Shown here: positions 36,271 to 63,149 of the stretch, piece after piece
Position numbering within the stretch: the stretch's first letter is position 1
How the letters are laid out: every line of letters begins with the position of its first letter
Assembly: GCA_035390885.1 (NCBI GenBank)
Contig: DAOOUW010000007.1
Span: 84 to 64,083 of the forward strand
From: Bacteroidota bacterium
GTDB taxonomy: Bacteria; Bacteroidota; Ignavibacteria; UBA10030
DNA length: 64,000 bases
Direction: 5' to 3'
Program-made: the position numbers and the translations under genes
Notes under the pieces: model-generated
Databases searched by the model: none
What the model was told of the DNA's origin: nothing
The model's input: the letters and a program-made list of their open reading frames with translations, nothing else

Positions 36271-39200
36271 CTAATATTGTACATACAAATATACCATGGG
36301 GGTTCCAGCTTCAAAATATGGCTTTACCTGATTATAAAAATCTTCTGATACAGAGCATAAAACACCAATGCAGCCTTCGGTACCTTCAGGTGGGGCATCT
36401 GGATGAATTCTTAAATAATCTCTTCCAGGTGCATCACTTAAATCAATACTCCATCCCATTTCTTCACCAGGACAAACCATCCCTTTCATTGTTCTTCGTC
36501 TCAGATTAGTAGCTTCATATATACCTTCTGGTAACCGACCTTTTCCATATGGTCCAGATATTGCTGGATACATTCCAATAATAATTCCATTCCCAACATT
36601 TGTTTTAATAGTTAAAGTATTGCCATTAAATGTCATTACAATGTTTGAAGGACTTTCTTGACCATATATAACTTGAAAGCCCTTTCTATCGAACAGGTTA
36701 ATCGGATCATTCAAACAATATTCGTACAAATTTGAAACGCCGCCTCCAAATCCTATCGGGTCTTTCGCTGTCCATCTTCCCGTTTCAGCATCATAATCCC
36801 TCGCACCAAATCTTGTTAGCTTTGTCTGGTTATCATATAAACCTCCACAGAAACCAAACGGGGTAAAGTCAGGGTTGCTATCGTAGGATACATTTCCATG
36901 CTCATCGTAATCCAGGCGCTGCATCACGGTTCCTGTTGCAACATCCACTACAAGTCGTACGCTTCCTAAATGATCTGTTATGAGTTGATATGTGTTGCCA
37001 TCTTTTATCATATAACTACCTGCAAATCTTGCTGTGATGTTCCCTGTGCTATCGAGTTCTGCCACTGGCGTTAATTGTCCAGAGTATATCCACTTCTTAA
37101 CTATCTGTCCGTTAACCTTCTTGCCAATCTTGCGATTCTGTCCATCTATAATGTAATCAATTCTGTCTTTGTTCGGTAAGATGACTGTTTTTAAGTTTCC
37201 AAAGTAATCGTAGGTGTAGAAAGTTGTGTCAGTCCCTTCCACTTTCATTTTTAACTCACCATTTGGTGTGTAGAAGTATTGCGCATTACCATAACTCAGC
37301 ATTCTATCCTGTGCATCGTAACTGCCACTATCTACTCTGCTCGATGTCCAATGGCTTATACGATTTCCATTGGCATCATAAATATAGACAGAAACTAATG
37401 TATCATTTCGCCAGACTTTCTCTAACCTGCCTGCGATATCATAACTATACCTCTTGACTGTTGCTACACCTTCTACTGCCTCTGTTATCTGAGTTATGCG
37501 TCCAAGCGAGTCTCGCTGGTAATTTGTACCGAAGATTGTGTTTGTGCCATATTTTGCATGGTAACTTGCAAGTTCTCCAAGTGTACTATAACTCTGACTC
37601 GTTGTTACATTGCCTAAAGTTGTTCCACTGATTCTGCCTGTTGCTGCTTCCCTTGTAATATCCATTGCTCCAACTTTCGTTAGCAAGCCATCATTGTCAT
37701 ACGCAAAGTCTATTGTATTATTGCCATTGATACTCTGGCTCGTTACTCTCAGGTTTTCATCGTAGGTTACCGAGACTGTGCCAACAACTCCACCTCGCCA
37801 CGTTACACTCGTCGGTAATGTGCCATCGTAGCTGTAAAGCAACGTATCTTCTGGCGAAATTAGTGTATCCAGAGTGCCTGTTATTGGATTATAGCCAAAG
37901 GTTAATGCTCCTCTGTCGAATAGTATCTTCTTCGGTCTGCCAACAGGTCCGCAACTACCACAGCCTGTACTATCATAGAGTGTCTCTATTACTCCTCCAT
38001 CCGGTCGAATGACTCGCACTACATCTCTATCCTTGTTATACTCATAGCGTGTGTTCAATGTATCCGTTCCTAATACTGGCGGCGCATAGAGTGTTGTCAA
38101 ATCTACTTTGTTATACTCAAAACCATGGGCTGGTCTTGCAGGCGGTATGAGCGTTGTCAGGTTCCCATTTGCATCGTAGGTGTAAAGTATCTCGTGCCCA
38201 TCGGGCAATACTTGCCGGGTTATTCTGCCTACCGAGTCGTATTCAAATCTCGATACTCTTTGAATCGGATCTGTTGCTGTGGCAAGCCAGCCTCTATTGT
38301 CGTAAGTATAGCTTGCCGTGCGTCCAGCTTGTGTTACAGTGATAAGTTGTCCTTTTGGATTGTAGCTGTAATAGGTAGCTTCTATACCAGGAATCGAGTC
38401 TTTGATTACTCTGCCTTTCTCATTTATCCAGCTAAAGGTTTCTCTGCCTTCAGGGGAAATAGATCTGAAGAGCTTATTTGCTCCATCCCAGATTGTTTTA
38501 TACACCCTGTCATTAACAACAACCGAGTCTGTTAGTCCAGTTACTTCCATGCCGGTCATTTGAGAGATAGTACGGTATTGTTCAACTCTTGATTCTAAAC
38601 CGCTTGGTAATGTGGTAATTGTTGTTGTAAGTGGGGCTTGCATACCAAAGCGTGGGTCGGGTGAGTACTCAGTCTTTATTGTTGTACCATCGGACAAAAT
38701 ACTAGTTATTGTGCCATCACCTGGAATTATGTCAACAGTTGTTCGACCAGCTTCATCTGTTGAAGTTCTTTTTATTCCGCCTATTGGTAAATTCTCCAAT
38801 CTGTATTTGCTCTGTCTGCCTTCAGCAGTTTTCACAGATATTTCAAAACCAGTGGAAAACTGAGACCGATCAAGTGCTGTAAAACCGCCTGCTGGATCCA
38901 TATCCAGAACTAATCTTCCAACAGAATCGTAGAGGAAAGAATGAACATTACCATTCGCATCTGTAAAACTTGTCATTAAACCATCTTGTGTAAATGTGTA
39001 ACGAAATAATTCACCAGCTGGATTACGTATCGAAGAAATCAGTCCAACGCTATCAAGCACGATGTCCGTTTTTTGTCCATATGGTGAAATGAATGATTGC
39101 AGTCTCCCTTGCCCATCCCATTTTATTGTAGTAGCAAGGCTGTCTACATCCAAAATGGATTGTAGATGTCCGGTCGTATCGTATATAAATGAGTATAAAC

Positions 39201-44106: not shown

Positions 44107-44349
44107 GGCTTTCCCTTTGGTTTATAGTGATTAGTACTATGGATTTATTTTCGTATCCAAGGCTGGAATTCTTTGAGCCTCTTTTTGAACACTATTGAAA
44201 ATTTATTTCCCCACCCGTTGCCTTCCCTCCCACCGTAGTCCGTCTAACCTCACAACTCCGAAACGACTACTTGCAAACCTTCAACTATATTTTACTTATT
44301 GGTATTTTTGGAAAAAAGCAAGAAGTTTTTTTAGAAATTTTTTTGGAAA

Positions 44350-44527
44350 CACCCCGTCCTTCGGACACCCCTCTACAAGAGGGGAATTTTGTAGAGGTGA
44401 CTTCGATCAGGATTATCACTCTACTCAGCCGCCGTCAGGGAATCGGTTGCCGAGGTGCCGTAGGCGTATCGAGGCAACGGACTACTCTGGTTTTCTCACC
44501 CACGGGTGAACCCGTGGGTTACAAGTG
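44350..44527 (+). repeat. Structured intergenic repeat, copy A (core 44399-44478) with flanking GC hairpins
   Basis: The core aligns with copies B, C and D. 5' hairpins: GTCCttcgGAC and CCTCTACAA-(10 nt)-TTGTAGAGG. 3' hairpin: CCCACGGGtgaaCCCGTGGG (44498-44519). Lies between the rhs start and the gspF stop. ORFs 44195..44509 and 44271..44696 are translations of it. Confidence 0.7.
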
Positions 44528-44548: not shown

Positions 44549-45649
44549 CTATCCTCCAACGGCACCTACCACTTCGAACATTGGCATATACATCGAAATA
44601 AGAATGAATGCAACTACCAAACCTAAGAATAGAATGATAACAGGTTCAATAATTGATGAGAGAGTATCCACAGTTAAATCTATTTCTTTTTCATAATAGT
44701 CGGCTACTTTCAATAGCATTGTATCGAGTTCGCTGGTCTCTTCACCCACTGTAATCATTTGCGCGACCATCGGTGGAAAAAGCTTCGATTCTACTAATGG
44801 CTCCGCTACTGCTTTCCCTTGTTTGACCGCACGAATGATTATTCCAATTTCATTTTTAATTTCCTCTATCGTAAACATCTTTTGCACTACTTCAAGCGCT
44901 TCAACTAATGACACTTGCGCTTCCAATAATGTGCCTAATGTTCTGCAAAATTGCGCTACGTAGTGTTTGAGAATCGTGCTTCCAAAAAATGGAAGACGAA
45001 TCAAATAGGATTGTAACTTAGCTTTTACAGCGGGATTCTTCAGAAAATTTCTGAATGCAAATCCTAACACTATCAACAAAATAACTGCATAAATTCCGTA
45101 TGCCTTCACACCATCGCTTAACTCCACCACAAATTTCGTCATAGCTGGCATTTCAACTTGAGAAGTCTTGAACATCTCAGCAAATGCAGGAATAATGAAC
45201 AAGAGCAAAAACAACACCGCCGCAATTGCAACCGTTAAGACTAACGCTGGATATGTTAATGCTTGCCGGAATTTCTTCTTCAATGCATTGATCTTTTCAA
45301 GATGCGTTGCAAGCTGTGCAAGGACAGACGGCAATCTCCCGCTCTCCTGTCCAACTTCAACTGTAACCACAAATAAATTATCGAATACTTCTGGATAAGC
45401 GTTCAAAGCTTTTGCAAAGGATTCGCCGCGCTGAATTCTACTTAAAAGACCTTCGATAACTTCCTTCATCCTTTCATTTTTAGTTTGCCGGGCAAGCACT
45501 TCTAACGAACGATGCAGCGATACTCCTGCCTGTAACATAACAGCTAATTGAGTTGAGAACTCAACTTTATTCTTCTCGGTAACTTGCGTCCGCTTCAGAA
45601 AAGTAAAAGAATCTTTTTTCGTAACTTCTTTTTTATTTTTTTTATCCAT
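44549..45649 (-). CDS. gspF: Type II secretion / type IV pilus platform protein (GspF/PilC family)
   Basis: 366 aa with two T2SSF repeats and three TM segments. Confidence 0.85.
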   Translation of the reverse strand: MDKKNKKEVTKKDSFTFLKRTQVTEKNKVEFSTQLAVMLQAGVSLHRSLEVLARQTKNERMKEVIEGLLSRIQRGESFAKALNAYPEVFDNLFVVTVEVGQESGRLPSVLAQLATHLEKINALKKKFRQALTYPALVLTVAIAAVLFLLLFIIPAFAEMFKTSQVEMPAMTKFVVELSDGVKAYGIYAVILLIVLGFAFRNFLKNPAVKAKLQSYLIRLPFFGSTILKHYVAQFCRTLGTLLEAQVSLVEALEVVQKMFTIEEIKNEIGIIIRAVKQGKAVAEPLVESKLFPPMVAQMITVGEETSELDTMLLKVADYYEKEIDLTVDTLSSIIEPVIILFLGLVVAFILISMYMPMFEVVGAVGG

Positions 45650-45678
45650 AATGAAATGTTAATGAAATTTATAGTTTT

Positions 45679-46185
45679 CTATCTCTTTACATAAAAATCC
45701 GATTTCGAACTTGGTGTTGTCGTTGCAACTATTTCATATTGACAATTTGCCCATCTCGATTCCGCCAAAATGCTTATTCGATATTGCACGGAATTCATTC
45801 CTCTAACTTCTTCTCTTACCTTCACTAAAAATACTTTTGCCTTCTGAGGCGTAATATCCACTCCATTTCTACTTATTCTCCATCTCTTGTCCAAATCTGA
45901 GCTCTTCACAAAATCATATCGAATCTCTTTATCGAATTCCCTTGTCAATACAAGCGACGTATCCGTCAAGCTCACTCCTGAACTGGTCTTCTGAATATCC
46001 ATCGCCATAAGCGTCAAGATACGCCGAACATCGCCTTTCATTTCTGTAGAACCGTTCCACCTCTGAAACAATTCATTCGTAAACTGAAAGAGAGCAAAAC
46101 TCATGCTTACTAAAATTGAGCCTACGATGAGAACTACTAAAATTTCCTGAATCGTAAATCCATCTGTTTCCTTCAGTACTTTCAT
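45679..46185 (-). CDS. Minor pseudopilin (prepilin-type N-terminal cleavage/methylation domain)
   Basis: N-terminus ..TDG/FTIQEILVVLIVGSILV. Confidence 0.7.
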   Translation of the reverse strand: MKVLKETDGFTIQEILVVLIVGSILVSMSFALFQFTNELFQRWNGSTEMKGDVRRILTLMAMDIQKTSSGVSLTDTSLVLTREFDKEIRYDFVKSSDLDKRWRISRNGVDITPQKAKVFLVKVREEVRGMNSVQYRISILAESRWANCQYEIVATTTPSSKSDFYVKR

Positions 46186-46547
46186 TCATACTCCAGAAAA
46201 GTTCTAAACAATTCCACTAATAATTCCTTATCCTTATTTCCACTCCAGACCAACACTCTCACTTCGACAAGCGATTCCGACTTTGTAACGATTCGCTGAA
46301 TAACGAGGCCATGGTCAGCCGGTTTTACCGCCGCAGTAAAATCTTTATTGCTTGAAATTTCATTCATTTCAGAAATAGCCAAGAGAAAAGCTTTATTCTT
46401 AAGTTCAACTCCTCTATCGAACATCAAGTTCCCCATCATTGTTATCATTGGAATAAGAACGCTCAAGAATAGAGCCATTGCAACAAGCGTTTCGATAAGA
46501 GTATAGCCAGACTCCTTCTTAAAAATATTTTTAAGATTTAATACCAT
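46182..46547 (-). CDS. Minor pseudopilin (GspI/J-like)
   Basis: N-terminus ..ESG/YTLIETLVAMALFL. 4-nt overlap with the next gene. Confidence 0.7.
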   Translation of the reverse strand: MVLNLKNIFKKESGYTLIETLVAMALFLSVLIPMITMMGNLMFDRGVELKNKAFLLAISEMNEISSNKDFTAAVKPADHGLVIQRIVTKSESLVEVRVLVWSGNKDKELLVELFRTFLEYE

Positions 46548-47953
46548 TCTAACACATCCAGTTTATTCGATTTGCCAAAACCTGTTGGAACAAGATATGA
46601 AAGAGGAAGTTCCTCCCTGTTAATATGTCCAGTTCTAATCCAACCCATATACACTGTTGGCGCTTCATAGAAATAAAATTCTTTCGTCAAGACAGTGCCA
46701 GCGACAGAACCATCAAGAGTTATAGCGCCTTCGCACACAACAGCGCCAGTAACTTTAGCGCCTGGCTCGATATTGATAAGAGTATTTTGAATCGGCAAAT
46801 TCCCTTCTGTTAACAAAGCAAGAGCCCCTTCCACCAGACTTCCATTCCTTAATGTAATTCCTTGCCCTGCGATCTTCGAATCGTCCGATTGAAATGATAC
46901 AACGGTTGAGGGATAATCGAGTCTTGCTCCCGATGAAATCTCTACCGCAGGCGCAAGGATTTGTCCGCTGAAAGTACAATTGCTGTCAACTTGAACTAAT
47001 GTACTACTGAAAAGAATTGCAGATTGTATCGAGACATTATGAGGAACGACTATTTCCTCCCGCGACAATATTGCAACAAGTCCCTTGAGTTCAGCGCCTT
47101 GCTCGAAGATTACTCTATTGCATAAAATATACAATGGCTTGGGTCGTCTCTTGACATAATTATTGATAACAAGATTTCCATTTACAACAATGGAATTCAA
47201 CTCATCTGTAACAGAATTATTATCAAGGATAAAGGATGAACCAACATACTTGCTGTTTCCCCAGCTCGATGATATTTGTGCCTCACCTTTCTGAATCTTT
47301 GCGAAATATTCGACTTGCTGTTTCCATCCCCCAAGCGACAACGACGGCGAAATTTCTCTTTTGATGTTTCCTTCAATTGGCTTCTTTAGAGGCGCAGGGA
47401 AATTAGCAATAGTTCCAGTAGTAACTCCGCTTATTCCCGTAATAACATTTCCTTTTATTTGAGCAGACCCGGTCATTACAAGCTGATGTTCGGTATTTGC
47501 AAAGTAAAGTGCATTTTCAAATTGACTCGTTGGCATATTCGCAATAACAGCATGCCGTTGAGTTCTTACACGACCGACCCAACCTTCTGAGAATATTGCG
47601 TAGTACAATCCCCAATGTTGGATTTTAACAACAGCTTTTCCATTTTGTCCAAAATCATACTCTCTCGCAATCTCCATTCCAAATTGAGGCGATATTGCAT
47701 GGGAATTCAATTCCACAATAGCTCGATTGACTCCGTCAATCGCCGCATAATCTGATTTGACTTGAGCAACGCTCAACAACGCATTCTGTTGATAGAAATA
47801 TTTAAGCATCACTATGGAAAGAATAAGAAGAGAGAGAATAGTAATCATATAAAGTACAGAAGGTAGTGCAAATCCCTCCTGTTTCTTAAGGATTATTTTT
47901 CTGCCAAATAAAATCAACTTAGAAAACAATTGATGTTCTCCCTTTTTCTTCAA
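46538..47953 (-). CDS. Large GspK-like minor pseudopilin with predicted beta-helical body
   Basis: N-terminal QEGFALPSVLYMITILSLLILSIV has the GspK-type helix without Glu5. The remainder has repetitive (V/I)xGx(V/I) segments (IKGNVITGISGVTTG; KVTGAVVCEGAITLDGSVAGTV). Confidence 0.45.
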   Translation of the reverse strand: MKKKGEHQLFSKLILFGRKIILKKQEGFALPSVLYMITILSLLILSIVMLKYFYQQNALLSVAQVKSDYAAIDGVNRAIVELNSHAISPQFGMEIAREYDFGQNGKAVVKIQHWGLYYAIFSEGWVGRVRTQRHAVIANMPTSQFENALYFANTEHQLVMTGSAQIKGNVITGISGVTTGTIANFPAPLKKPIEGNIKREISPSLSLGGWKQQVEYFAKIQKGEAQISSSWGNSKYVGSSFILDNNSVTDELNSIVVNGNLVINNYVKRRPKPLYILCNRVIFEQGAELKGLVAILSREEIVVPHNVSIQSAILFSSTLVQVDSNCTFSGQILAPAVEISSGARLDYPSTVVSFQSDDSKIAGQGITLRNGSLVEGALALLTEGNLPIQNTLINIEPGAKVTGAVVCEGAITLDGSVAGTVLTKEFYFYEAPTVYMGWIRTGHINREELPLSYLVPTGFGKSNKLDVLEWY

Positions 47954-48114
47954 TATAGCGCTAATCCAAGAATAAAATATAGATTCTTGTAATTCAACTC
48001 TTTCCTTGAATTTTTATTATTGGAATCTTAAGGGACGTTGCAGAATTATTGGACTATTTAGCCTTTCTCAATTTTATTATTTCCCAGTTTATACATTAGA
48101 AATTTGCAAAGACT

Positions 48115-48196
48115 GTTGCCTCGATACGCCTTACGGGACCTCGGCAACCAATCTACCGACAGTGGCTGAGCAGAGCGATGGCACGTATCAATGCCC
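48115..48196 (-). repeat. Structured intergenic repeat, copy C (inverted orientation)
   Basis: Its reverse complement aligns with the cores of copies A and B. Lies in the divergent promoter region of the secretion cluster, in sense orientation to the minus-strand pseudopilin operon leader. Confidence 0.7.
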
Positions 48197-48413
48197 ATTT
48201 TAGTTCCTTTTCTCTACTTCTTCATTTCTATAGTCCATTCTTCCCCTAGTACATCTAATTTACTATACCCAACATTTTTATTGGACATAATACCTGCCAT
48301 TCTTAATGAGCTATTACATATTACACGATTTTTTCCATACTTGAGAAATATTTGTAATAATTGTATAATAGGTAGAAGGTAATTCAAAGTGCAATAGTAA
48401 AGGAGGTTTTTCC

Positions 48414-48833
48414 ATGAAGAAAAGAAATATTAACTTTTATTATTCTTCATCTGGATTTTCTTTAACCGAGCTGATGGTTGTACTTGTCATCATCGGTGTT
48501 TTGGTTCTTCTGGCGATGCCGAAACTTCTTCCAATTGTTACAAAGGCAAAAACAACCGAGGCAAAACTCATGCTCAAACAGGTAATAACGCTAGAGCAAA
48601 GTTATAAATTCGAGAACGATCGATATTCGAACTCACTTGCCGAAATCGGCTTCGAGCAGTCGAAACTTATATCAGAGGGAGGTCAAGCACGATATAAAAT
48701 CGAAATTACTTCTGCTGATGAAAAAAGTTTTGTTGCACGAGCTATTTCGACGGTAGATTTCAATAATAACGGTGTATACAATGTATGGGTTGCCGATGAA
48801 ACAGGAGCTATAAAAGAGGAAGTCCCAGATTGA
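48414..48833 (+). CDS. gspG: Major pseudopilin/pilin (GspG/PilA-like)
   Basis: 139 aa, SSG/FSLTELMVVLVIIGVLVLLAMP. AAGGAGG ribosome-binding site upstream. Confidence 0.8.
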   Translation: MKKRNINFYYSSSGFSLTELMVVLVIIGVLVLLAMPKLLPIVTKAKTTEAKLMLKQVITLEQSYKFENDRYSNSLAEIGFEQSKLISEGGQARYKIEITSADEKSFVARAISTVDFNNNGVYNVWVADETGAIKEEVPD

Positions 48834-48839
48834 CAAATC

Positions 48840-49631: not shown

Positions 49632-51103
49632 AAATTGATCAAGAGGTATTGAAGCTCATTCCAAAGCAAATGGCTGTGGATTTGTGTGTATTGCCGCTTT
49701 CAAAAGATGATGGAGCCATCCACATTGCAATGGTTGAAAACTACGACAGAAAAATCTTGAATGAACTTTCCTTTGTATTGGGCAAAAAAATAGTGGTAGA
49801 GATTTTTCCACAGGATGTTCTGGTTGAAGCTATAAAGCAGCACTATGGTTTCTCGAATTTTGAAACAATAAAATCGGAACCCGAAGAACTAAATTCCGAA
49901 TTTGTTTCATTAAAGGAAGAGGAAAAGAAAGTAGAATTTTCATCGGATGGCTCAGTAGTATCGTTAGTGAATAGAATTATTACTGATGCAATCGATATGG
50001 GAGCAAGCGATATTCATGTCGAGCCTTATGAAAAACAACTGCGGATTCGATATCGTCTGGATGGAGTCTTGCATGAAATACATCAGCTATCGGTAAATAA
50101 AGCAAAGCCTATTATTTCTCGTTTGAAAATTATGGCAGATTTAGATATTGCGGAAAAGAGAAGGCCTCAGGACGGCCGTATAAGAGTAAAACAAAAAAAT
50201 CGTGTCATCGATATACGTGTATCAACACTACCAACCGATTTCGGTGAAAAGGTGGTACTTAGGATTCTCGATAAATCTCAACTTCAACTTGATTTATCGA
50301 AATTAGGATTCGAAGAAAATGATTTGAATAAATTCAAACGAGTGTTGCACCTGCCGTATGGTATGGTGCTTGTAACAGGTCCAACTGGAAGCGGAAAAAC
50401 TACAACGCTCTACGCAGCGCTCAATTATATTAGTAGTCCAGAAATCAATATCACAACCATCGAGGATCCCGTTGAATATAATTTACCAGGGATCAATCAA
50501 ACTCAGGTACGATCCGATATCGGCGTAACCTTTGCAACAGCATTACGAGCAATTTTACGACAGGATCCAAATGTTATTATGGTTGGAGAAATCAGAGATG
50601 GTGAAACTGCCGAAATTGCAATACGATCGGCATTAACCGGACATCTTGTGCTTTCTACTTTACATACAAACGATGCTCCTTCTGCAGTAACGCGTCTTGT
50701 GGATATGGGAGTCGAACCATTTTTAGTAGCGTCTTCTTTAAAGATGATCCTTGCGCAAAGACTCTTACGGCGATTGTGTAACAAATGCAAAATGCCGGTA
50801 AAGCCATCTCAAGATATTATTCAGGAAATTGGCGCCAAAAATATTAAAGATAATGTAGTATATTACGAACCAGCCGGTTGCCCTGAATGTAATCATCTGG
50901 GATATAGAGGTCGTACCGCTGCTTATGAAGTTCTGCTTCTAGAGGAAGGATTACTGGAGCATATTGGGAAAAATGTAACTGCGACTGAGGTGCGCACTAT
51001 TGCAAAGAAGGAAGGTATGCTCACTTTGAGGCAATCTGCACTGTTAAAAGCTGAACGTGGGGAAACTTCTTTAACGGAAGTAGTAAGAGAGACCACTCAA
51101 TAA
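49610..51103 (+). CDS. gspE: Secretion ATPase GspE/PilB family
   Basis: T2SSE_N domain, Walker A GPTGSGKTTT, Asp box, Walker B, His box, and a tetracysteine CNKC..CPEC motif. Confidence 0.9.
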   Translation: MSNSASLKIDQEVLKLIPKQMAVDLCVLPLSKDDGAIHIAMVENYDRKILNELSFVLGKKIVVEIFPQDVLVEAIKQHYGFSNFETIKSEPEELNSEFVSLKEEEKKVEFSSDGSVVSLVNRIITDAIDMGASDIHVEPYEKQLRIRYRLDGVLHEIHQLSVNKAKPIISRLKIMADLDIAEKRRPQDGRIRVKQKNRVIDIRVSTLPTDFGEKVVLRILDKSQLQLDLSKLGFEENDLNKFKRVLHLPYGMVLVTGPTGSGKTTTLYAALNYISSPEINITTIEDPVEYNLPGINQTQVRSDIGVTFATALRAILRQDPNVIMVGEIRDGETAEIAIRSALTGHLVLSTLHTNDAPSAVTRLVDMGVEPFLVASSLKMILAQRLLRRLCNKCKMPVKPSQDIIQEIGAKNIKDNVVYYEPAGCPECNHLGYRGRTAAYEVLLLEEGLLEHIGKNVTATEVRTIAKKEGMLTLRQSALLKAERGETSLTEVVRETTQ

Positions 51104-51184
51104 GAGAGGAGATGTTTTTCAAATAAAATCAATTACTGATTTTAATGAAATTTGAAGAAAGTTTGCCATTTCAAGGAGGTTTAT

Positions 51185-53311
51185 ATGAAAATTAAAATAA
51201 TATTCTTAATCACTTTCATTATTACAAATTCCATAAATCTATTTTGCCAGCAAGCCGATACCCTGCAACAGAGATTTCGTAAAATGCCTCAAAGACAGCC
51301 GTTCCCTCAACAGGTTCAGGATAAAACAATCCAAAGTCAATTAATGGGAAAGGGTACCGAACAGTCGATACCTACCGATGTTTCAAGTGAGTCTACTGAA
51401 ATGCAAAATGCCGATTCTTCACTTATCGTACCTACACCGGTTGATACAACAATGATAGAATCTGAAAGTATGTCAAAGGAAGGAAAAGGTCCCGAAATAA
51501 AAAAAGAAATCGAATTACCGCAGGGCGCAAAAGATAGTACCACACTAAGTTTTCGAGATACAGATATAAGAGATATTTTTCGAGGATTAGCGCTCCAGCA
51601 TAAGTTGAACATCTTTGTAGATAACAGCATTAATAAAAGAGTAACGATATCGCTTAATCAAGTGCAAGTCTATGAAGCTATTAAATTTATTTGTGAGCAA
51701 AACAATTTAAGACTCGAAATCGAAGGTGGAATCTTCAAAGTATTGCCCCCTCTTCCACTTCCAAAGCCCGTCCCTCCTCCACCAAAAGTACCAATGGTTT
51801 ATTATGAAAATGGCCTTTTATCCGTCTGGCTTAAAAATGATGATCTAGAATCTGTTATTACAGAAATACAGAAGAAGTCCGGGAAAAATATTCTCATCCT
51901 GAGCGGAACTACAGGGTCATTGAGTGGAAATTTGAAGGACGTAGATTTCGATATAGGCTTTACGCAGTTATTGAATAATAATGGTTTTGCCGTTCAGAAG
52001 AAAAATGGAATTTACATCGTTAGTCGTCTGGATTATTTTGTTGGTCAACAACAAGCACCTCAAGGACAAAAAGCTGGTCCATACTGGATTAGCGTTAAAG
52101 ATTCAGTTGTTACGTTAGATGTTACCAATGCGCCACTGGAGCGAGTCATTGCGGATATGATCCGTCAGTTGAATACGGATGTGGTGTTCTATAATACAGT
52201 TACAGGCACCGTTACAGCAAGGGCAACAAACGTTAATCTTGATAAGGCTCTTGATATCATTTTGAGAAATACGAATTATGGATATCGTGAATCAGAAGGA
52301 ATCTATTTTATTGGCGAGAAGACGAATAAAGCTTTGATGGCTACAAAGCTTATAAAGCTGAAGTACCTTAGAGCAGATAAAATTATAGAAAGTGTACCTC
52401 AATCAATTTCTTCTCAAGCAACAATTAAAGTAATGAACGAACATAATGGAATTGTCATCATTGCACCAAACGATGTTATCTCTGAAGCAGAAGAATTTAT
52501 TCAACAAATAGATAAACCAGTCGCACAGGTATTGATCGAAGCGATTGTTGTAGATTTTGATAGAACAAAAGCTCTTGATTTAGGGGTGAAGGCAGGGTAT
52601 CTAAGTTCAGGCGATTCTACGGTTTCTTTTTCAAGAACAGATATGGTTGTCCCGAATGTTGATATGATGTTTTCTGCAAATCAACTTAATAATGCTTTAC
52701 AAAACGTTGGCGCAGTAAACATCGGTAAGCTCCCCAATAATTTCTTTGTACAATTAAAAGCCATGGAGCAACGCGGCGTCGCAAATATTCAATCTCGACC
52801 ATTGCTTGCGACTCTCAATGGGCATCCTGCAACATTGAGTGTTGGTACAACTTTCTATTTCAAGCTTTTGACAACCACCTCTCTATATAATGTTGGGCAG
52901 GGCTATTTACCTCAAACGAGCGAACAATTTACAACAGTCGAAGCTGATACCAAATTGGAAATTACACCCTACGTAGGTTCTGATGGACAAATAACTGTCG
53001 AGTTGAAGCCAGATTTTAAGACCCCGATTGGAACACCAAGTAATGGAATTCCGCCAACGATCAATCGACGAGCTCTTTCTTCAACATTGGTTGTTCGGGA
53101 AGGCGAAACAATTGTCGTCGGTGGATTGATTCAAGAAGTAGAGAATGTATCGAAAACACAAGTGCCCATTCTCGGCTCGATTCCTTTATTAGGGTATCTC
53201 TTCTCTTCCACCAATAAGAGTACTAACAAAACTGAATTGTTAATTTACATAACTCCTCATATTTCATTTGGTGAAGAGTTTCAGAATGTGAGCTTACCTA
53301 CACAGAAATAA
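51185..53311 (+). CDS. gspD: Outer-membrane secretin (GspD/PilQ family)
   Basis: Signal peptide, proline-rich linker PLPLPKPVPPPPKVP, N-domains, and a C-terminal secretin domain (..VVREGETIVVGGLI...VPILGSIPLLGYLF). The start at 51185 follows AAGGAGGTTTAT; the track ORF begins at a TTG at 51152. Confidence 0.85.
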   Translation: MKIKIIFLITFIITNSINLFCQQADTLQQRFRKMPQRQPFPQQVQDKTIQSQLMGKGTEQSIPTDVSSESTEMQNADSSLIVPTPVDTTMIESESMSKEGKGPEIKKEIELPQGAKDSTTLSFRDTDIRDIFRGLALQHKLNIFVDNSINKRVTISLNQVQVYEAIKFICEQNNLRLEIEGGIFKVLPPLPLPKPVPPPPKVPMVYYENGLLSVWLKNDDLESVITEIQKKSGKNILILSGTTGSLSGNLKDVDFDIGFTQLLNNNGFAVQKKNGIYIVSRLDYFVGQQQAPQGQKAGPYWISVKDSVVTLDVTNAPLERVIADMIRQLNTDVVFYNTVTGTVTARATNVNLDKALDIILRNTNYGYRESEGIYFIGEKTNKALMATKLIKLKYLRADKIIESVPQSISSQATIKVMNEHNGIVIIAPNDVISEAEEFIQQIDKPVAQVLIEAIVVDFDRTKALDLGVKAGYLSSGDSTVSFSRTDMVVPNVDMMFSANQLNNALQNVGAVNIGKLPNNFFVQLKAMEQRGVANIQSRPLLATLNGHPATLSVGTTFYFKLLTTTSLYNVGQGYLPQTSEQFTTVEADTKLEITPYVGSDGQITVELKPDFKTPIGTPSNGIPPTINRRALSSTLVVREGETIVVGGLIQEVENVSKTQVPILGSIPLLGYLFSSTNKSTNKTELLIYITPHISFGEEFQNVSLPTQK

Positions 53312-53319
53312 TCTGGTTG

Positions 53320-54747
53320 ATGAAGAATCCACTGCAACAAATCGACGTCAAGAAAATTGCCGGTGTAAAGAAAATTCTGGGAATAAATTTCGATGAACAT
53401 CGCGCTCGGATTGTCGAAGTTCAGCAATCTATAAAATATTCAAAAAAGAATGCATCAACGTATAAAGCGCTAAACTCTTTTACAGTTAATTTCAATGAAA
53501 ATTCTTCCTGGTCTGAAAAAGGAGAGGCAATTAAAGTAGCCCTTGCTCAACGAGGTATCACTACTCCCTACGCTGTTACAAGCATTCAATCGCTAGGAAT
53601 AAAAATAGTTGAAGTGAATATCCCACCTGGTACCCAGGATTTCGATGAATGGATCATGGAGAACCAAGAGAAACTCTTAAAGTATACAAATTCATCGGCG
53701 AAAATAGTTTATGTCTATAAAATATTAGAAGAAACGGATCAAGGATACCGAACAGAAATTTGTTTTGTGCGACAAGAACAAATCGAAAATTATACAATTG
53801 CACTAGAGAAAGCTGGATTGAAGATCCTTTTCATGGATGTAGGAATATCGGATGCACTCTATGCTTTGGAAGTTGAAAAAAATGCACTAAATGTAAAATT
53901 AGAGAAAACGATTTTTGTTTATGTCCAGGAACATCAATTCATTATAATGAAAATACAAAATGGGAAAAGGATATCTCTGTCCGTACAAGACGCTCCTGAA
54001 AATAGTAACATTTCGGATGAATTATCAAATATACTTCCAAACGAAGATGATGTTGAGGTCATTTTAACAGGCGATGTCGTTCAAACACAATCATATCGAG
54101 TTCTGAATCCGTTGGGATGCACTCCAGAGTATGCGCTTGCTGTGGGTTTGGCAATCCGAGGGTTTTCATCATCAGCGAATGAAAAATCACTTTTGCCCGA
54201 TTCAGAGAGAGAACAATTAGAAACTTCTTTAATGAAGTCGGTTTTCCAGAGAGTAACAATTTTATTGGGCTCGATAGTTTTACTCGCCTTGCTTTTGCAA
54301 TATGTGACAGATTATATCATTACCTCTAAAATGGAAGGAATGGAAGAACAGTTATTGCAGAATGGCAGTTCTTATGCTGAAGTACAATTACTCGAGAAAC
54401 AAGTACAAGAACTTAAACAGCAGTTACAAGGGAAAGGAGCGTTGGTTAAATCTTCTCAATATGCAAAATTCCTTCACGATATTGCAGCGGCTATTCCTGA
54501 AGGCTCATGGCTCTATAGATTAAAAGGTGGAGAGAATACAAATGGCTCGTCGGCGTTTTCACTTTGTGGATATGCCGAGAATACTGAAAAAGTTACAGAA
54601 TTACTACGCTCATTATATGAGAAAAAATTCGATGTAAAGCTCATTCGCTCTGGCAATCAATTGCCGGCTGAAAGTCTTGTGCCTATTCCTTCAGGAAAGA
54701 AATTCATCACTTTTGAAATTCAGGTATCTTACCGTTCAATAGAATGA
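53320..54747 (+). CDS. PilM-PilN fusion / GspL-like assembly protein
   Basis: Has a cytoplasmic actin-like N-domain, one TM helix (VTILLGSIVLLALLLQYV) and a coiled-coil periplasmic domain. Confidence 0.55.
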   Translation: MKNPLQQIDVKKIAGVKKILGINFDEHRARIVEVQQSIKYSKKNASTYKALNSFTVNFNENSSWSEKGEAIKVALAQRGITTPYAVTSIQSLGIKIVEVNIPPGTQDFDEWIMENQEKLLKYTNSSAKIVYVYKILEETDQGYRTEICFVRQEQIENYTIALEKAGLKILFMDVGISDALYALEVEKNALNVKLEKTIFVYVQEHQFIIMKIQNGKRISLSVQDAPENSNISDELSNILPNEDDVEVILTGDVVQTQSYRVLNPLGCTPEYALAVGLAIRGFSSSANEKSLLPDSEREQLETSLMKSVFQRVTILLGSIVLLALLLQYVTDYIITSKMEGMEEQLLQNGSSYAEVQLLEKQVQELKQQLQGKGALVKSSQYAKFLHDIAAAIPEGSWLYRLKGGENTNGSSAFSLCGYAENTEKVTELLRSLYEKKFDVKLIRSGNQLPAESLVPIPSGKKFITFEIQVSYRSIE

Positions 54748-55280
54748 AAGAAACGAAAAAATATCGGTACCTCACGATTATCGTGATAATTTGCTGCATC
54801 TATGTATTTGCAACAGAAGTCGTTAATCGTTGGAGTGCAACGCTAAAAAATCATGATGCCCTTATGGAGCGAAGGAAAACCGTCCTTACCCCCGAAGAAC
54901 TGATGAACAAAAAAATGGACTTGATTGCCAGAAAACGCATGCTTACAGCTCAATTGACGCAGGGAGAAACAGGATACGAGCAGAATCAGATTGGCATTGT
55001 AAAACATATCAATACTTGCGCAGAGAAATCGAATATCCTACTGCGTTCATTGACGCCTCTCGAAGCAAAGCGCCTTGGACAGATTGTTGAGCACAGTTTT
55101 AAATTAGAAATGAACGGTACCTACCATCACATAGGTCAGTTTATCAATAAACTCGAGACAGGGGGAATTCCTGTTAAGATCACGCAAATAGATATCGTTC
55201 TTCAAAACTCCCATTCCCAAGTACTAGAAGCAACTTTAGAAGGGAAAGCGTATGTACTATCGAAAGAATCAGCAAAATGA
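54744..55280 (+). CDS. PilO/GspM-like bitopic assembly protein
   Basis: 178 aa with an N-terminal TM helix, a coiled coil and a ferredoxin-like tail. Its start overlaps the upstream gene's stop. Confidence 0.45.
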   Translation: MKETKKYRYLTIIVIICCIYVFATEVVNRWSATLKNHDALMERRKTVLTPEELMNKKMDLIARKRMLTAQLTQGETGYEQNQIGIVKHINTCAEKSNILLRSLTPLEAKRLGQIVEHSFKLEMNGTYHHIGQFINKLETGGIPVKITQIDIVLQNSHSQVLEATLEGKAYVLSKESAK

Positions 55281-55741
55281 GAGCAAATAAGAAAATTACA
55301 TACTTCCTTGCTGTCGTTCTGCTCATTGTGTGGGGAGCTATCGGATATCAGATTATCACTGCTTTGAGTCAAAAAGATGATGACGAAGGAACGATTGCGA
55401 CCACTTTCGATGTTGAGAAAGATTTTAAGAAATCAAGTTATCTCTATATTGATGACGTACGTGATCCTTTCAAATTTAGTTCTTCAGTAAAAGCGGAGTC
55501 AACGAGTAGAGTGAGGAAACCCGCTATTGCTTCCCCTATCAATGTGCCGCCGCCGTTCCGATTGACCGGCATAGTATTGGATAAAAATAAAAAAACAGCG
55601 ATGCTCGAAGGCTATAATGGAAGCGTTTACTTCTTGCACGAAAATGATACAATCGATGGCTTAAAAATTCTAAAGATTACCGAGAACGAAGTAAATTATT
55701 TTTGGCGTAAACAAAAAGGGAAATGGGAATTGACAGAATAA
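55277..55741 (+). CDS. PilP/GspC-like protein
   Basis: 154 aa with an N-terminal TM helix and a C-terminal beta domain (LTGIVLDKNKKTAMLEGYNGSVYFLHENDTIDGLKILKI). Confidence 0.45.
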   Translation: MRANKKITYFLAVVLLIVWGAIGYQIITALSQKDDDEGTIATTFDVEKDFKKSSYLYIDDVRDPFKFSSSVKAESTSRVRKPAIASPINVPPPFRLTGIVLDKNKKTAMLEGYNGSVYFLHENDTIDGLKILKITENEVNYFWRKQKGKWELTE

Positions 55742-55814
55742 AGTGAAATTATTTATTTCACGCAGATAGTACAATTTGGCGCATATATTTTTCAATAGAA
55801 AAGAACAACAATTA

Positions 55815-55980
55815 CCCCCCCCTCTTCAAGAGGGGAATAATTCCCCTTCTCAGAAGGGGTGTCAACCGAAGGTTGACGGGGTAGTCTATCATGGCGGTGG
55901 CTTCGATACAGACTATCGCTCACCTCAGCCACCGTCAGGAAATCGGTTGCCGAGGTGCACGAATTGCATATCGAATCAAC
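55815..55980 (+). repeat. Structured intergenic repeat, copy B (core 55899-55980) with three 5' GC hairpins
   Basis: 5' hairpins: CCCCTCttcaaGAGGGG, CCCCTTCtcaGAAGGGG and GTCAACCgaaGGTTGAC, followed by the core. Lies between the secretion operon and rhs2, in sense orientation to rhs2. ORFs 55776..56021 and 55891..56085 are translations of it. Confidence 0.7.
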
Positions 55981-56278
55981 AGGTTATATTATCGCCGGAA
56001 CTCAAGAGATATTTCCTTTAGAAACACACCTCAATGCTTCTATTGCAAAAATTGGAATGAGTCGAAGTATAGGATTTTTGCGTAAAAAGTACTCGACAAA
56101 GGAATAAAATAATGATACAATTTTTTCAAGCTAAATTTTCACAAAGGAGACTGTAACAGAATTATTCCATTGAGCATAAATAACTAGAAGGCTTGACTGA
56201 CTCAATATGGTTTCAGAGAGGCTCTATAAAGGCTAGAGGAGAGAAAATAAGCAGTGGGGCTTTACCAACCTCTAAATA

Positions 56279-56297: not shown

Positions 56298-56396
56298 ATT
56301 ACATACATTTTTTAGTTTGTCATATTGCCTATATAAGAATTTACTATAGCTGAAAATCAAATTAATTAATTTAATAAATTTAATGGGAGTTATATC

Positions 56397-62300: not shown

Positions 62301-63149
62301 CAGGGAGTGGATTATACATACAACGAGCGCGGATGGCTGACCATGATTAACCACCAGAATCTTGGAGGTGTTGATAATAATGGACAACCGCAGGACCCTG
62401 GCAGGGATGGATTCGATTCTGGATTGCCGGCAGATAAATTCGGCGAGGTTATCGGATATAATAATATTGATTATCATATCGGTGCGCCACAATATCAAAA
62501 TACAACGCCTCAATTCAACGGTAATATCAGCTGGTTAATGTATGCAATTCAGAATGTCAAATTCAATGGTACGCAGTTGTGCGGTTGGACATACAGTTAC
62601 GATGGTGCAAATCGTCTAACGAAGGCTGATTTTGGTTATTACACAAATGCATGGCTTCAGAGTAATGCTTACGATTTACCTGCAATATCCTACGACCCGA
62701 ATGGCAATATTCTCTCGTTAAATCGGTTGAGCTATTCAGGCATTAGATTAGATAATCTAAGTTATACATATCAAGTGAATACAAATAGATTAACTTCTGT
62801 TTTTAATCAGGTTAACAATCGGAAACAAACCTATACCTATACTTATGATTCCAATGGAAATATGACGAGCGATTCATATCGTGGATTAAGCATCATACTT
62901 TATAATACACAAAACCTGCCTGAGCAAATTACCAAATCCAACGGTAATATTGTCCGATATTGGTACGACGCAAATGGAAATCGTTTACGCAAGCAGGAAC
63001 AAGCAAGCAACGGTTCAATTCTGATGGATGAAACGTATGTCCTCGGTATAGATGGACAGACGGAAGCGGTATATAATACCACAACAGGAGCATTGAAGTT
63101 CTGGAACATAAATGCAGGTGGACAAATGATTGGGAGGATAGAGCCATGA
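56397..63149 (+). CDS. Giant secreted YD/RHS-repeat protein with SpvB-like N-terminus and LamG-like domain, without a toxin tip
   Basis: 2250 aa with signal peptide MKIIARSILFLIIIISNAYGQ. SpvB/TcB-like N-terminus: TGDVGFSLPI..GGLDVELAYSS...GIGWELKVGSI. LamG/concanavalin-like domain at ~60030-60535. YD repeats from ~60540 (YxYDxxGR/N..). The protein ends at ..YWYDANGNRLRK..GGQMIGRIEP, before any DHLGS / DPxGL core end. Confidence 0.85.
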   Translation: MKIIARSILFLIIIISNAYGQTLGVVGDSYKGKYKSVKVGLECERNFGGENLFTGDVGFSLPIAQIGGLDVELAYSSNVHHLISAPNWKQQSGWVGIGWELKVGSIVGEINETVDPTDDRYFYQGPEASTELIYLRDNEFILKDYKFWKIKRIVDESHIPARVLGWEIIREDGTKYRYGNYNYIAEREDPKFVLDYEPTNATQFKLAWGNLVSNPPSTCYESASYAPHRWDLSDIEDIFGNHTTILYQQVKDSLRANYTDPNTGKLRSTKPYTRESYMYKIIDRVGNSVKFIIGPTASEEYTYFYGINIQQQYQTQQLNRVERFNQKGELINRIEFGYTDAGVYDAATVKRFLTSLTTKNALGEALPGDVFEYYKVGGVEDGPNHGALKKQIISTGGEVEYQYTTQQLTNVKLDTTFLCQNLNNSSLQQQFASYAYSINVLGMSGKDFFLLQNRNITGTQLNCYRFGPNGWKTDPEFPMINTYSKVWVRGDYVLARSIEGNNLSILKRVGDSWHCRHGFRLSKITIQYDIGGTVTKYPDDIILLGMGNDFFVVEAHYNNGSKSCFEVRQYVIWWDNEIGDWNFQELGDYGMRNSYPDDDLSPWREKDDPRFAACGNRFFVINSLHKVWCWNGINWQSYEIQNEDINGNIYSDNCFKPFVGEDYIVLLYYGVKEQDYIRRLQLGQKTYPCRGSSVYSWNGQNWSRSSEHYMAVHPMTTFGNYFCVKRQYDENIPPDLAIFYKKVPDFPLDNTWIQYNLTDTHVGNLPVTQCAFRGDLIAFNFDQQLYISRFQEKPVQIKLNGFPEYIDGDWSQYELAQPLVNNNSIFASFVRGNSTPPSMFGYGLFKFQFKDQQWTKEELLTYSIGNGYGKGACIQPGSNFLAAVYSVNSNHVDGLCSAFKQGFDQNFSDIFKNYPYDFPVIKKILRDQNGHEYITTMQYENGTFDEDMISAKYNKVIVSLPESNGKIVTYYYNKLSRAQLLDYNDCLNPSGVEQNLSGLSYQIRYLDDANNEIMSSKIYNESLFERWGTPTNKMYMYYCKPIMIDTIKYGVVSRTAIDYSESNGELCRLIRKTDVDNGEENKRGSVREVIYAYQEYASMGAEQKHMLNQIYEDKINSAYIENLSTEEVSLSSEKMEAGWRTIYENDLPKQQQVWIGPGIKDWQIVQSIINRDAVGNIIETEDANGIRSQYYYGHNKSLKIAEFFNTSNEKVWADNFDDGSIDDSDPMIWSKSGMWTINHGILKSTNTAYLGNHNAEVQNFKFDIALRIVNDYSNIANWAGVHFGSTSNNIFNSGYLIYYRENGEINLYHEGSNLFSVFTGLVPNVWRHLSISVDGTKIEVFIDGQRFIDYSLSEPVPSGFVSLNSYQADTEYDDFRCYPVRAIAQSHAYDSLWSKENIFSDPNGRALSIKYDSFGRIQSIQDLYSENMFSNYLYYYSRSGNLSYNQLDPNYVLTQTWLKPGVYINSKNFYDGLNRMLQSQILVSEGKIITPKEYEALGRIVRVYKPYFMANTTLGFDPNYLNNDIGYYLNIGLFNVSNYPYAENEFYRDPLNRLKLAAFPGLTFKKGGKNILYTYGSDRINELFYVTKTDENGIKETIFTDKSGNHIKTIADSTALRLTTAFKYDILGRIVKSIPPRGDLLASAYVYNPKSQLVQKTTPDAGTVQYLYDKVGNLRLIKDAGHTGTVNNISISGVKEPTNSPEGSFILTLPGKVNLSLLRAYLISGSPVGNLIILSNGVEVCRVTVNSSTAASLSIVLPKGSYTYTSTVSGGSGVYPYTITCNTGCEFIYNKYDSFNRITENGEYESNSTGNFTQANANNPSFPTSGTIVTKKFFYDTPSTNSIASGQRNLRGQLSYSYTYQLGSICEEMYYSYDNFGNVEWIIQKTAGTPIGKKIQYKYDLQGNITQKNYYDLDNSSNNISFFYEYDLAGRLSKVYSDQNANGTSRVLEAIYTYNADGSVKRLQLGNAQGVDYTYNERGWLTMINHQNLGGVDNNGQPQDPGRDGFDSGLPADKFGEVIGYNNIDYHIGAPQYQNTTPQFNGNISWLMYAIQNVKFNGTQLCGWTYSYDGANRLTKADFGYYTNAWLQSNAYDLPAISYDPNGNILSLNRLSYSGIRLDNLSYTYQVNTNRLTSVFNQVNNRKQTYTYTYDSNGNMTSDSYRGLSIILYNTQNLPEQITKSNGNIVRYWYDANGNRLRKQEQASNGSILMDETYVLGIDGQTEAVYNTTTGALKFWNINAGGQMIGRIEP

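Follow-up and report, generated by a model that had tools for sequence, protein, structure and literature searches.

Bacterial teneurin-like proteins (TLPs) are the ancestors of the animal teneurin receptors, and their structural characterization came only in 2026. The TLP superfold consists of an FN-plug, an NHL domain, and a YD shell, which are called by three hidden Markov models, and a TIP module lies between TTR and the FN-plug in 96% of TLPs; in BiTLP of Bacillus inaquosorum (PDB 9pt5/9ifo), the inner cavity measures ~44,000 cubic angstroms (Raoelijaona et al., Nat Commun 2026, PMC13018210). According to the same study, TLPs are linked to social bacteria and are listed in six phyla, among which Bacteroidota/Ignavibacteriota and Gemmatimonadota do not appear. 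These proteins have no obvious delivery machinery, their delivery mechanism is still to be found, and secretins and pili are not mentioned in that paper (PMC13018210). In Escherichia coli, SslE/YghJ is secreted by its own type II secretion system (T2SS), T2SS-beta, which is encoded beside it (PMC5012682, PMC3707838). Here, we analyzed a stretch of 64,000 nt (hereafter, the window) of a Bacteroidota bacterium (Ignavibacteria; UBA10030; GCA_035390885.1, contig DAOOUW010000007.1, positions 84-64,083 of the forward strand), in which a T2SS-like machine is flanked by two giant YD-repeat proteins, named G1 and G2. We propose, with a probability of roughly 0.55, that this locus is one functional unit, in which the machine is coupled to two Sec-dependent YD-shell giants and exports or displays them.

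Organization of the locus

The machine occupies positions 44549-55741 as two divergent operons, and the distal co-directional gene of each encodes a giant YD protein with a Sec signal. The minus-strand operon runs from a 471-aa pseudopilin-like protein through two small pseudopilins to GspF, with G1 as its distal gene. The plus-strand operon comprises the major pilin, A24 prepilin peptidase, GspE/PilB, secretin, a PilM-PilN fusion, a PilO-like protein, and a 154-aa protein in the PilP/GspC position, with G2 as its distal gene (Table 1). The source contigs carrying this locus show the same layout.

These results agree in large part with an earlier note on this DNA. All of the open reading frames (ORFs) that it named were found where it had placed them; the secretion apparatus was confirmed by Pfam (T2SSF, prepilin-type proteins, A24 peptidase, T2SSE, secretin, and PilN/PilO-like); the giant YD proteins on either side of it are both real; and both of them were seen to open with a Sec-type signal when their sequences were inspected. 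A prepilin-type signal on the giants was considered and rejected, as both N-termini are ordinary Sec signals. Moreover, as the note had claimed, neither G1 nor G2 contains a PAAR, VgrG-adaptor, LXG/WXG, or type IX secretion system (T9SS) C-terminal domain by Pfam, and no marker of a type VI secretion system (T6SS) is present among the ORFs of at least 100 aa in the 64-kb window, a set that was annotated in full. A T9SS C-terminal sorting domain (Por_Secre_tail, 28.3 bits vs a cut-off of 27) was found on a 567-aa protein at 25965-27668 on the minus strand. The organism uses the T9SS for some cargo, yet neither G1 nor G2 bears that tag. T6SS and type VII secretion system (T7SS) modules are likewise absent from both giants, and we count this in favor of the proposed coupling.

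Giants near secretin homologues in related genomes

Secretin homologues were drawn from Ignavibacteria-type Bacteroidota and related metagenome-assembled genomes (MAGs). A scan of species-representative genomes gave 80 secretin loci, in which every component of the window was mapped by tblastn. In the close clade (secretin of at least 500 bits; Ignavibacteria/Kryptoniota), a giant was present in 14/32 loci and in 11 of the 18 loci of at least 15 kb. Among more distant FCB loci (secretin 250-500 bits), the number was 3/19, and none was found in the 29 loci of Proteobacteria and other phyla (secretin below 250 bits). The difference between the close clade and the other phyla was significant (Fisher, p = 2.4e-5).

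The position of the giant varied considerably among these loci. In L006-L011, which were looked up independently of the scan and whose secretins are 58-73% identical, a TLP lies directly upstream of the secretin-PilMN-PilO-PilP block on the same strand. In other loci, the giant is located upstream of the secretin (L013-15, L027, and L044), between gspE and gspD (L010/L093 and L167), right after gspD in the slot that the PilMN gene holds elsewhere (L026 and L031), upstream of the pilin gene (L018 and L036), or, in another arrangement, after the PilP-like gene, and giants on both sides were observed in L039 as well as in the window. L026 and L031 are window-like in that a G2-like RHS gene (with its N-terminus outside the fetched region) and a G1-type giant flank the machine. 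Inherited synteny alone can hardly account for a linkage that is kept through so many rearrangements. The earlier note had named absence of the rhs-gsp adjacency from relatives as grounds for giving up its idea; the adjacency is present in relatives, survives rearrangement, and is specific to TLPs with the G1-type N-terminal module (see below).

Some further features of these loci were observed. A Peptidase_S26 (signal peptidase I-like) protein of ~360 aa is encoded between the TLP and the secretin in three loci (L009 7932-9008, L011 8577-9668, and L013 ~3889-4908), which may serve the giant as its own signal peptidase; among the annotated ORFs of the window, where no search was aimed at one, no counterpart turned up. 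The gene directly upstream of the TLP encodes a LuxR-type response regulator (Response_reg + GerE) both in an Ignavibacteria-type locus (L011 1-288) and in a Gemmatimonadota locus (L129 8389-9129). In addition, some MAGs carry two copies of the secretin locus (L032/L033 in BIN5, L029/L040 in WY2.bin60, and L053/L055), and in BIN5 a G2-like RHS gene is located upstream in both copies.

Machine genes near TLPs

In the reverse direction, metagenomes were scanned with an alignment of G1-type proteins as the seed, which resulted in 80 TLP loci, whose TLPs are 35-44% identical to G1. When the TLP has the immunoglobulin-like (Ig) array of G1, T2SS/pilus genes occur in the flanks of 11/20 loci (10/13 with at least 3 kb of flank). 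When it matches G1 only from ~residue 660, such genes occur in 1/60 loci (1/45 when the flank is at least 3 kb; 432 kb of flanking DNA covered). The two groups differ strongly (Fisher, p ~6e-8). The N-terminal modules of TLPs without machine neighbors are PKD/PASTA, Big_2, Big_9/He_PIG, CBM96, or beta-helix, and no more than one Glucodextran_B domain is present. Sec or lipoprotein signals are found on these machine-less TLPs as well, so that what goes with the machine appears to be the N-terminal module rather than the bare presence of a Sec signal. Such a correlation is expected if the N-terminus specifies the trafficking route, by analogy with other polymorphic toxins.

Five of the TLPs (in L011, L027, L129, L143, and L104) share a conserved module after the signal peptide ('..YGPxxF/Y..G...; ..L.V.NG......V..A.V.LNG..'), which G1 lacks. 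In L143, PilB-, PilT-, and PilC-like genes adjoin the TLP, and a few kb upstream of these genes and the TLP there is a SprA_N (T9SS translocon-like) gene (L143 1-2850).

Canonical T2SS operons in Gemmatimonadota

Several of the Ig-array TLP loci are GC-rich (0.60-0.70). One of them, L129, has the order LuxR-type response regulator, TLP, GspG, GspF, pseudopilin, GspK, GspL-like, 485-aa protein, GspD, and GspE, and the homologues of its secretin are named Gemmatimonadales, Longimicrobiaceae, or Gemmatimonadota GspD. In L103, the TLP is followed by GspE and GspF and then by GspJ, GspK, and GspL-like. Two further Gemmatimonadota secretins that are 63-65% identical (L175 and L176) are both encoded in compact gspG-to-gspE operons. 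The L175 operon is headed by a TLP, whose stop is overlapped by the start of gspG, and the L176 operon is headed by YD-shell ORFs that are probably the 3' end of a TLP. A TLP or its YD-shell 3' part therefore heads the canonical operon in 3/3 Gemmatimonadota loci examined (L129, L175, and L176), where the gene order is gspG, gspF, minor pseudopilins, gspK, L-like, gspM, C-like, gspD, and gspE. The Gemmatimonadota TLPs have glycine-rich hydrophobic C-terminal domains (CTDs; L175 1-4282 and L129 16801-16914). In a profile comparison, this canonical T2SS and the Ignavibacteria machine were clearly distinct; because the two differ, the partner of TLPs seems to be a T2SS-like machine in general and not one syntenic block.

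The above data bear on the possibility that the adjacency has no function, the locus being a hotspot for mobile rhs elements or a case of inherited synteny, with the real exporter (e.g., a T6SS) encoded elsewhere. Although rhs loci recombine readily, this locus contains an IS200-like transposase and a dispersed repeat, and the adjacency is absent in some relatives, we consider this explanation very improbable. The linkage is found in many arrangements, including inside operons, and it extends to two phyla with different machine architectures and to two unrelated YD families. Furthermore, TLPs with other N-termini are almost never near machine genes (the single case among 45 loci mentioned above), and neither giant possesses a PAAR or VgrG-binding module.

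Domain composition of G1 and its toxin/immunity array

The Pfam matches of G1 include TEN_NHL (97 bits), TEN_YD-shell (116 bits), and TTR_TEN1-4 (93 bits). Among solved structures, it is closest to the 'Teneurin-like protein' entries 9pt5/9ifo (~1165 bits over four stretches), and animal teneurins score ~265 bits. One unbroken alignment (450 bits) pairs residues 661-1250 of G1 with residues 359-915 of BiTLP and covers TTR, TIP, and FN-plug; TIP, present between TTR and FN-plug, is assigned from the BiTLP alignment alone. Because of the 9pt5/9ifo match and this unbroken TTR-TIP-FN-plug alignment, G1 is classified by its sequence as a full member of the bacterial TLP family. The autoproteolysis motif of TLPs, a pair of DPxG-type motifs spaced ~20 residues apart, is found in its RHS core (DPIGF...DPIN), so that cleavage is predicted, and the CTD of ~130 aa has weak YkuD and DUF5675 matches by Pfam.

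The interval previously considered (36271-63149) leaves out an orphan toxin/immunity array of ~8 kb that belongs to G1 (28054-36261). Its orphan cassettes (28054-35619) lie downstream of G1 on the same strand, and repeat families D1-D7 tie the distal cassette to the 3' end of G1. The exchangeable C-terminal toxins of G1 are probably peptidoglycan-directed. The immunity candidates of the array carry signal peptides, which fits with toxins passing through or acting in the periplasm.

Domain composition and linkage of G2

The description of both proteins as RHS giants holds for G1, specifically as a TLP, but inspection of the sequence end of G2 revealed neither an RHS core nor a toxin, and hence G2 is not an 'Rhs toxin'. 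Pfam gave no match in the first 1200 residues of G2. An AlphaFold model of these residues had low confidence (mean pLDDT 56); when this low-confidence model was submitted to Foldseek, the top seven and nine of the ten best matches were TcB/BC chains (E 1e-19 to 1e-22, TMq ~0.3), and the SpvB N-terminal domain was also matched (TMt 0.49). Pfam SpvB was borderline in the relative L039 (21.3 bits vs a cut-off of 22).

Relatives in L022 and L039 carry the core and a toxin, and G2 was considered as a recently truncated pseudogene. This was rejected since P0121, the closest homologue of G2 (39% identity), ends at the same position; here too, the start of the next gene, a TPR gene, overlaps the stop. 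This toxin-less form of G2 is conserved and not a truncation; on the basis of the model, a TcB-like shell protein that brings no toxin with it is the most fitting description. The G2-TPR pairing in the window and at P0121 suggests that the TPR protein is a conserved partner. Among the relatives of G2, a separate, TcC-like YD-shell gene lies downstream of the G2-type gene in L173 and L174, and a fused BC form also occurs. The window contains no TcA-like gene and no TcC-like partner after G2.

The N-terminal region of G2 has few detectable homologues, and three of their neighborhoods were inspected: P0121 is located directly after pilin, peptidase, and gspE, P0123 is 2 kb from a divergent machine operon, and P0122 is on a short contig without machine genes. 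Overall, G2-type genes adjoin the machine in L022, L049, and L174 as well as beside P0121, and in L026, L031, L032, L033, L039, and L042 it is accompanied by RHS genes that resemble the repeat region of G2 and whose N-termini fall beyond the fetched DNA. Because G2-type genes adjoin the machine as well as TLPs, two unrelated YD-shell families appear to associate with the same machine.

Classification of the machine

Comparison with NCBIfam equivalogs placed the machine in neither of the two nearest families. With regard to the type IVa pilus (T4aP), PilB (619 vs 676 bits), PilC (307 vs 700 bits), and PilQ (226 vs 284 bits) remained under their cut-offs, and PilM and PilN are fused rather than separate. 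With regard to the T2SS, the core set GspD, GspE, GspF, and GspO is present by Pfam, and the equivalogs for GspD, GspE, and GspF are below their cut-offs; four prepilin-type proteins are candidates for the pseudopilin set, with GspG at 41 bits (cut-off 88.85) and GspI at 23 bits. Neither PilT nor PilU was detected as a retraction ATPase, a single T2SSE-family ATPase being present among the annotated window ORFs. Because no equivalog model reaches its cut-off and no second T2SSE-family ATPase occurs among these ORFs, the machine is labeled here as a T2SS-like, non-canonical member of the type IV filament superfamily, which would stand between T4aP and T2SS.

The secretin scored higher as PilQ than as GspD (194 bits), and its homologues are annotated as PilQ by JGI. 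It is encoded by a 719-aa ORF in the window; in the source annotations, translation begins at a later codon, which gives a 708-aa form (P0001), and an exact-sequence database look-up of the 719-aa ORF gave no match, as the databases carry P0001. In the PilM-PilN fusion, a single transmembrane segment lies between the N-terminal part of ~300 aa and the PilN-like part, and its orthologue in L103 matches both PilN and PilM_2. The match of the PilO-like protein to T2SSM (GspM) was weak (hhalign probability 11%). The 471-aa protein, which the earlier note had called GspK-like, retains that name only in part: hhalign supports the N-terminal helix, covering only 62 N-terminal columns with a probability of 65%, and the rest of the protein has no GspK match. 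It was rejected as a GspK homologue and can be called GspK-like solely by its position and N-terminal helix.

The pilus-like features are compatible with co-regulation without transport. Here, the machine would build a pilus or pseudopilus for adhesion or contact, and the giants would arrive at the surface through vesicles, lysis, or a different system and would act once the pilus joins cells, their genes staying linked through shared behavior. Such a scenario would account for the match of the alignment proteins to PilN/PilO and not GspL/GspM, the PilQ scores and names of the secretins, and the pilus-like neighbors of the TLP in L143; the link of TLPs to social bacteria is also in its favor (PMC13018210), and the objection that the giants are too large for a secretin falls away. 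We nevertheless regard it as unlikely, given that the cluster in the window has no retraction ATPase, its minor pilin set resembles a T2SS tip, the Gemmatimonadota partner is a canonical T2SS (GspG, K, M, D, and E) with the TLP first in the operon, and neither giant has an alternative export module.

A proposed route and the points against it

Because the linkage is conserved, module-specific, cross-phylum, and shared by G2-type proteins, a functional coupling between giants and machine is judged highly probable. That the coupling consists of transport through the secretin has about an even chance. In the proposed route, Sec would move each giant to the periplasm, as its signal peptide implies; the giant would fold there; and the pseudopilus and secretin would then move it onto or off the cell surface, a step suggested only by the conserved gene linkage. 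The N-terminal Glucodextran_B Ig array of G1, whose correlation with the machine was observed, would be the module tied to this route. The earlier suggestion of Sec export followed by secretin-dependent display or release thus stands as to a functional link between machine and giants and agrees with the linkage, and passage through the secretin is the part that is only proposed. A broader idea, to which we give slightly less than even odds, is that this T2SS-like branch is a dedicated export/display system for YD-shell proteins (TLP toxins and TcB-like shells) and the missing Gram-negative delivery machinery of TLPs, with a new trafficking class of polymorphic toxins specified by the Glucodextran_B Ig array and with by far the largest and most rigid secretin cargo.

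Several points weigh against export through the machine. First, the support is gene linkage, which indicates coupling rather than transport. Second, size is a concern: the lumen of known secretins is ~55-80 angstrom, the TLP superfold (FN-plug, NHL, and YD shell) is a rigid body of ~200 kDa whose width probably equals or exceeds this lumen, and, to our knowledge, G1 (~290 kDa) is far larger than any known T2SS cargo. Third, some loci (L012/L023, L017, and L030) have a full machine and no giant within 10 kb; in L012, the whole machine forms one operon. Fourth, the loci of the reverse scan are partly non-independent (L104 is close to L110, and L142 to L143), and the Ig-array TLPs come from a limited set of FCB-group lineages, so that N-terminal type is confounded with lineage. 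Fifth, no immunity gene lies between the TLP and gspG in the Gemmatimonadota loci, which is unusual for an antibacterial toxin. Finally, with a hydrophobic segment of ~20 residues and Pro at position -3, the N-terminus of G1 may be an uncleaved anchor.

The last point would suit display rather than release, with the Ig stalk (7+ domains) staying on the pseudopilus tip or threading the secretin and the YD shell held outside, in the manner of PilY1 and similar tip adhesins or of giant adhesins threaded through a pore. It is indeed the multi-copy Ig array that correlates with the machine, and the beta-helix body of the 471-aa pseudopilin-like protein could be a docking partner. Since G2-type proteins show the same linkage without an Ig array and the shell must cross the outer membrane anyway, we find this version improbable. 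Export or display of both giants by the linked machine is preferred here.

Features of the window and intergenic repeats

The features of the locus are listed in Table 1. An element of ~100-160 nt recurs in each of the three intergenic control regions: the one preceding G1, the one preceding G2, and the one that separates the divergent operons. Either a regulatory site common to these regions or a mobile repeat specific to this species could explain it; the former is weakened by the fourth copy at the window start, by the fact that the element was not found in the loci of other species, and by weak folding z-scores. An 81-aa ORF at 55776-56021 on the plus strand is of low complexity, overlaps repeat copy 2 and a GC-rich hairpin, and, on the source contigs, has no gene call; it probably does not represent a gene. 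An Rfam scan for regulatory RNA at the locus gave nothing. A promoter scan was at chance level (39 sites vs 36.7 expected) and lends no support to co-transcription.

Table 1. Coordinates of the features identified in the window, with the evidence for each. A slash in a prepilin motif marks the processing site.
Feature	Position	Strand	Evidence or remark
Repeat copy 4, weaker	327-422	+	Window start
Distal orphan rhs C-terminal cassette, split (28831-29484 + 28054-28284)	28054-29484	-	YD-shell end and RHS core motifs in translation
IS200-like Y1 transposase ORF, 171 aa, splitting the distal cassette	28284-28799	-	Y1_Tnp 24.4 bits vs cut-off 23
Orphan rhs-CT cassette, glycine-rich hydrophobic toxin	29869-30684	-	DHLGS...DPIGF core, then Gly-rich tail (translation)
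NTF2-fold immunity protein, signal peptide	30728-31150	-	Pfam Imm-NTF2-2 73.9 bits
Orphan rhs-CT cassette, 375 aa	31141-32268	-	Translation; direct repeats with G1 3' end, 79-88% identity
Orphan rhs-CT cassette, glycine-rich toxin	33177-33935	-	Translation
Candidate periplasmic immunity protein for the VanY/M15 orphan toxin, 127 aa	33979-34362	-	Position, signal peptide; no Pfam match
Orphan rhs-CT cassette: YD-shell end, RHS core, VanY/Peptidase_M15 toxin (peptidoglycan-directed)	34378-35619	-	Pfam TEN_YD-shell 80.7, VanY 26.5, Peptidase_M15_4 26.2 bits
Candidate G1 immunity protein, 182 aa, signal peptide	35713-36261	-	Directly downstream of G1; no Pfam match
G1, 2611 aa	36271-44106	-	Sec signal/anchor, 7 Glucodextran_B Ig, TTR, TIP, FN-plug, NHL, YD shell, RHS core, YkuD/DUF5675-like CTD
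Repeat copy 1, ~160 nt	44328-44495	+	Gap gspF-G1; repeat family D9; nhmmer 140.8 bits
GspF/PilC platform protein	44549-45649	-	Pfam T2SSF 204 bits; NCBIfam GspF 317, PilC 307 bits, both under cut-offs
Minor pseudopilin, 168 aa, prepilin motif G/FTIQE	45679-46185	-	Sequence; weak ComGF match
Minor pseudopilin, 121 aa, prepilin motif G/YTLIE	46182-46547	-	Pfam N_methyl; weak GspI and ComGE matches
Large pseudopilin-like protein, 471 aa, G/FALPSVL without Glu5, beta-helix-like body	46538-47953	-	Sequence; weak Pfam bactofilin/LbH matches
Repeat copy 3	48098-48263	-	Divergent promoter region between machine operons; repeat families I1/I2; nhmmer 137.3 bits
Major (pseudo)pilin, 139 aa, prepilin motif G/FSLTE	48414-48833	+	Pfam N_methyl, ComP_DUS; NCBIfam PilA 61, GspG 41 bits, under cut-offs
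Prepilin peptidase (GspO/PilD)	48840-49631	+	Pfam A24_N_bact 95 bits, Peptidase_A24 49 bits
Assembly ATPase (GspE/PilB), MshEN N-terminal domain	49610-51103	+	Pfam T2SSE 474, MshEN 47.8 bits; NCBIfam PilB 619, GspE 591 bits, under equivalog cut-offs
Secretin	51152-53311	+	Pfam Secretin 139.8, STN 58.5, N0 30.3, Secretin_N 27.8 bits
Fused PilM-PilN-like protein (GspL architecture)	53317-54747	+	Weak Pfam PilN match, residues 385-435
PilO/GspM-like protein	54744-55280	+	Pfam PilO 23.1 bits vs cut-off 22
154-aa protein, PilP/GspC position, N-terminal transmembrane segment	55277-55741	+	No Pfam match; kept after PilO in relatives
Repeat copy 2	55831-55995	+	Gap PilP-like gene-G2; repeat family D9; nhmmer 135.4 bits
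G2, 2250 aa	56397-63149	+	Sec signal, TcB-like N-terminal ~1200 aa, LamG-like, DUF6443, RHS repeats; ends ...GRIEP and stop before RHS core
TPR/YfiO(BamD)-like protein, signal peptide, start overlaps G2 stop	63146-64000	+	Runs off window; 484 aa on source contig; Pfam YfiO 63.4 bits + TPR families

Comparison with known systems

The T6SS Rhs effectors (e.g., Tse15, RhsA, and RhsP) have in common with this locus a YD shell around a C-terminal toxin, a core motif of the aspartyl-protease type, and the presence of immunity genes and orphan cassettes. They differ in that G1 and G2 have Sec signals and no PAAR, VgrG-binding, or clade domain, and that no T6SS gene is present in the window; Pfam detected none of these families, nor VgrG/EagR, in G1, G2, or their neighbors.

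Compared to the Tc toxin B subunit (TcdB2 and YenB; released by lysis through the type X secretion system, T10SS), the model of G2 matches TcB/BC best and G2 stops before the RHS core, and its relatives show either the separate downstream TcC-like gene or the fused BC form. In contrast to the Tc subunit, G2 has a Sec signal, LamG, and DUF6443, is followed by a BamD-like TPR gene and adjoined by a T2SS-like machine, and has no TcA. The Myxococcus Kil (Tad-like) apparatus is likewise a type IV filament-superfamily machine, used in contact-dependent prey killing, which is only an analogy, since it is of the Tad type and has no identified YD cargo.

With respect to described TLPs, G1 shares the BIG/Ig domains, TTR, TIP, FN-plug, NHL, YD shell, RHS core motif, short polymorphic CTD, and downstream immunity gene. 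It differs in its host, an Ignavibacteria-type Bacteroidota, and in its 7-copy Glucodextran_B array, its orphan toxin array, and its conserved linkage to a T2SS-like machine. This study extends the range of TLPs to Ignavibacteria-type Bacteroidota, Kryptoniota, and Gemmatimonadota, and the pairing recurs in two or three phyla.

Zhang et al. (2012) placed a 'T2SS' label on polymorphic toxins across lineages, including firmicutes and actinobacteria; we take it to refer to Sec-signal toxins rather than to demonstrated secretin dependence. The earlier note knew of no Rhs system that depends on a T2SS or pilus, and our literature search likewise gave no report of T2SS- or pilus-linked Rhs or TLP proteins, its coverage being partial and not proof of absence. 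No description of a conserved coupling between YD-shell giants and T2SS-like machines appears to exist so far, and G1 alone is a new member of the TLP family. The embedding of one TLP class in T2SS-like operons across phyla offers a testable hypothesis for the question of how TLPs are delivered. If transport is involved, a secretin-dependent route would join the known modes of Rhs export (T6SS, T7SS, and Tc/T10SS), the N-terminal module would predict the route, and current ideas on the size limit of T2SS cargo would be challenged.

As for the T2SS-beta of E. coli, its cargo SslE is a mucinase of ~170 kDa without a toxin shell, whereas the giants here are of 250-290 kDa with a rigid cocoon, and their export is proposed from linkage. 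In both cases, the gene for a large Sec-dependent protein adjoins or heads a T2SS operon, which in E. coli exports and surface-displays this protein (PMC5012682, PMC3707838), and the Gemmatimonadota layout, a TLP followed by gspG to gspE, is the same pattern as that of T2SS-beta and SslE.

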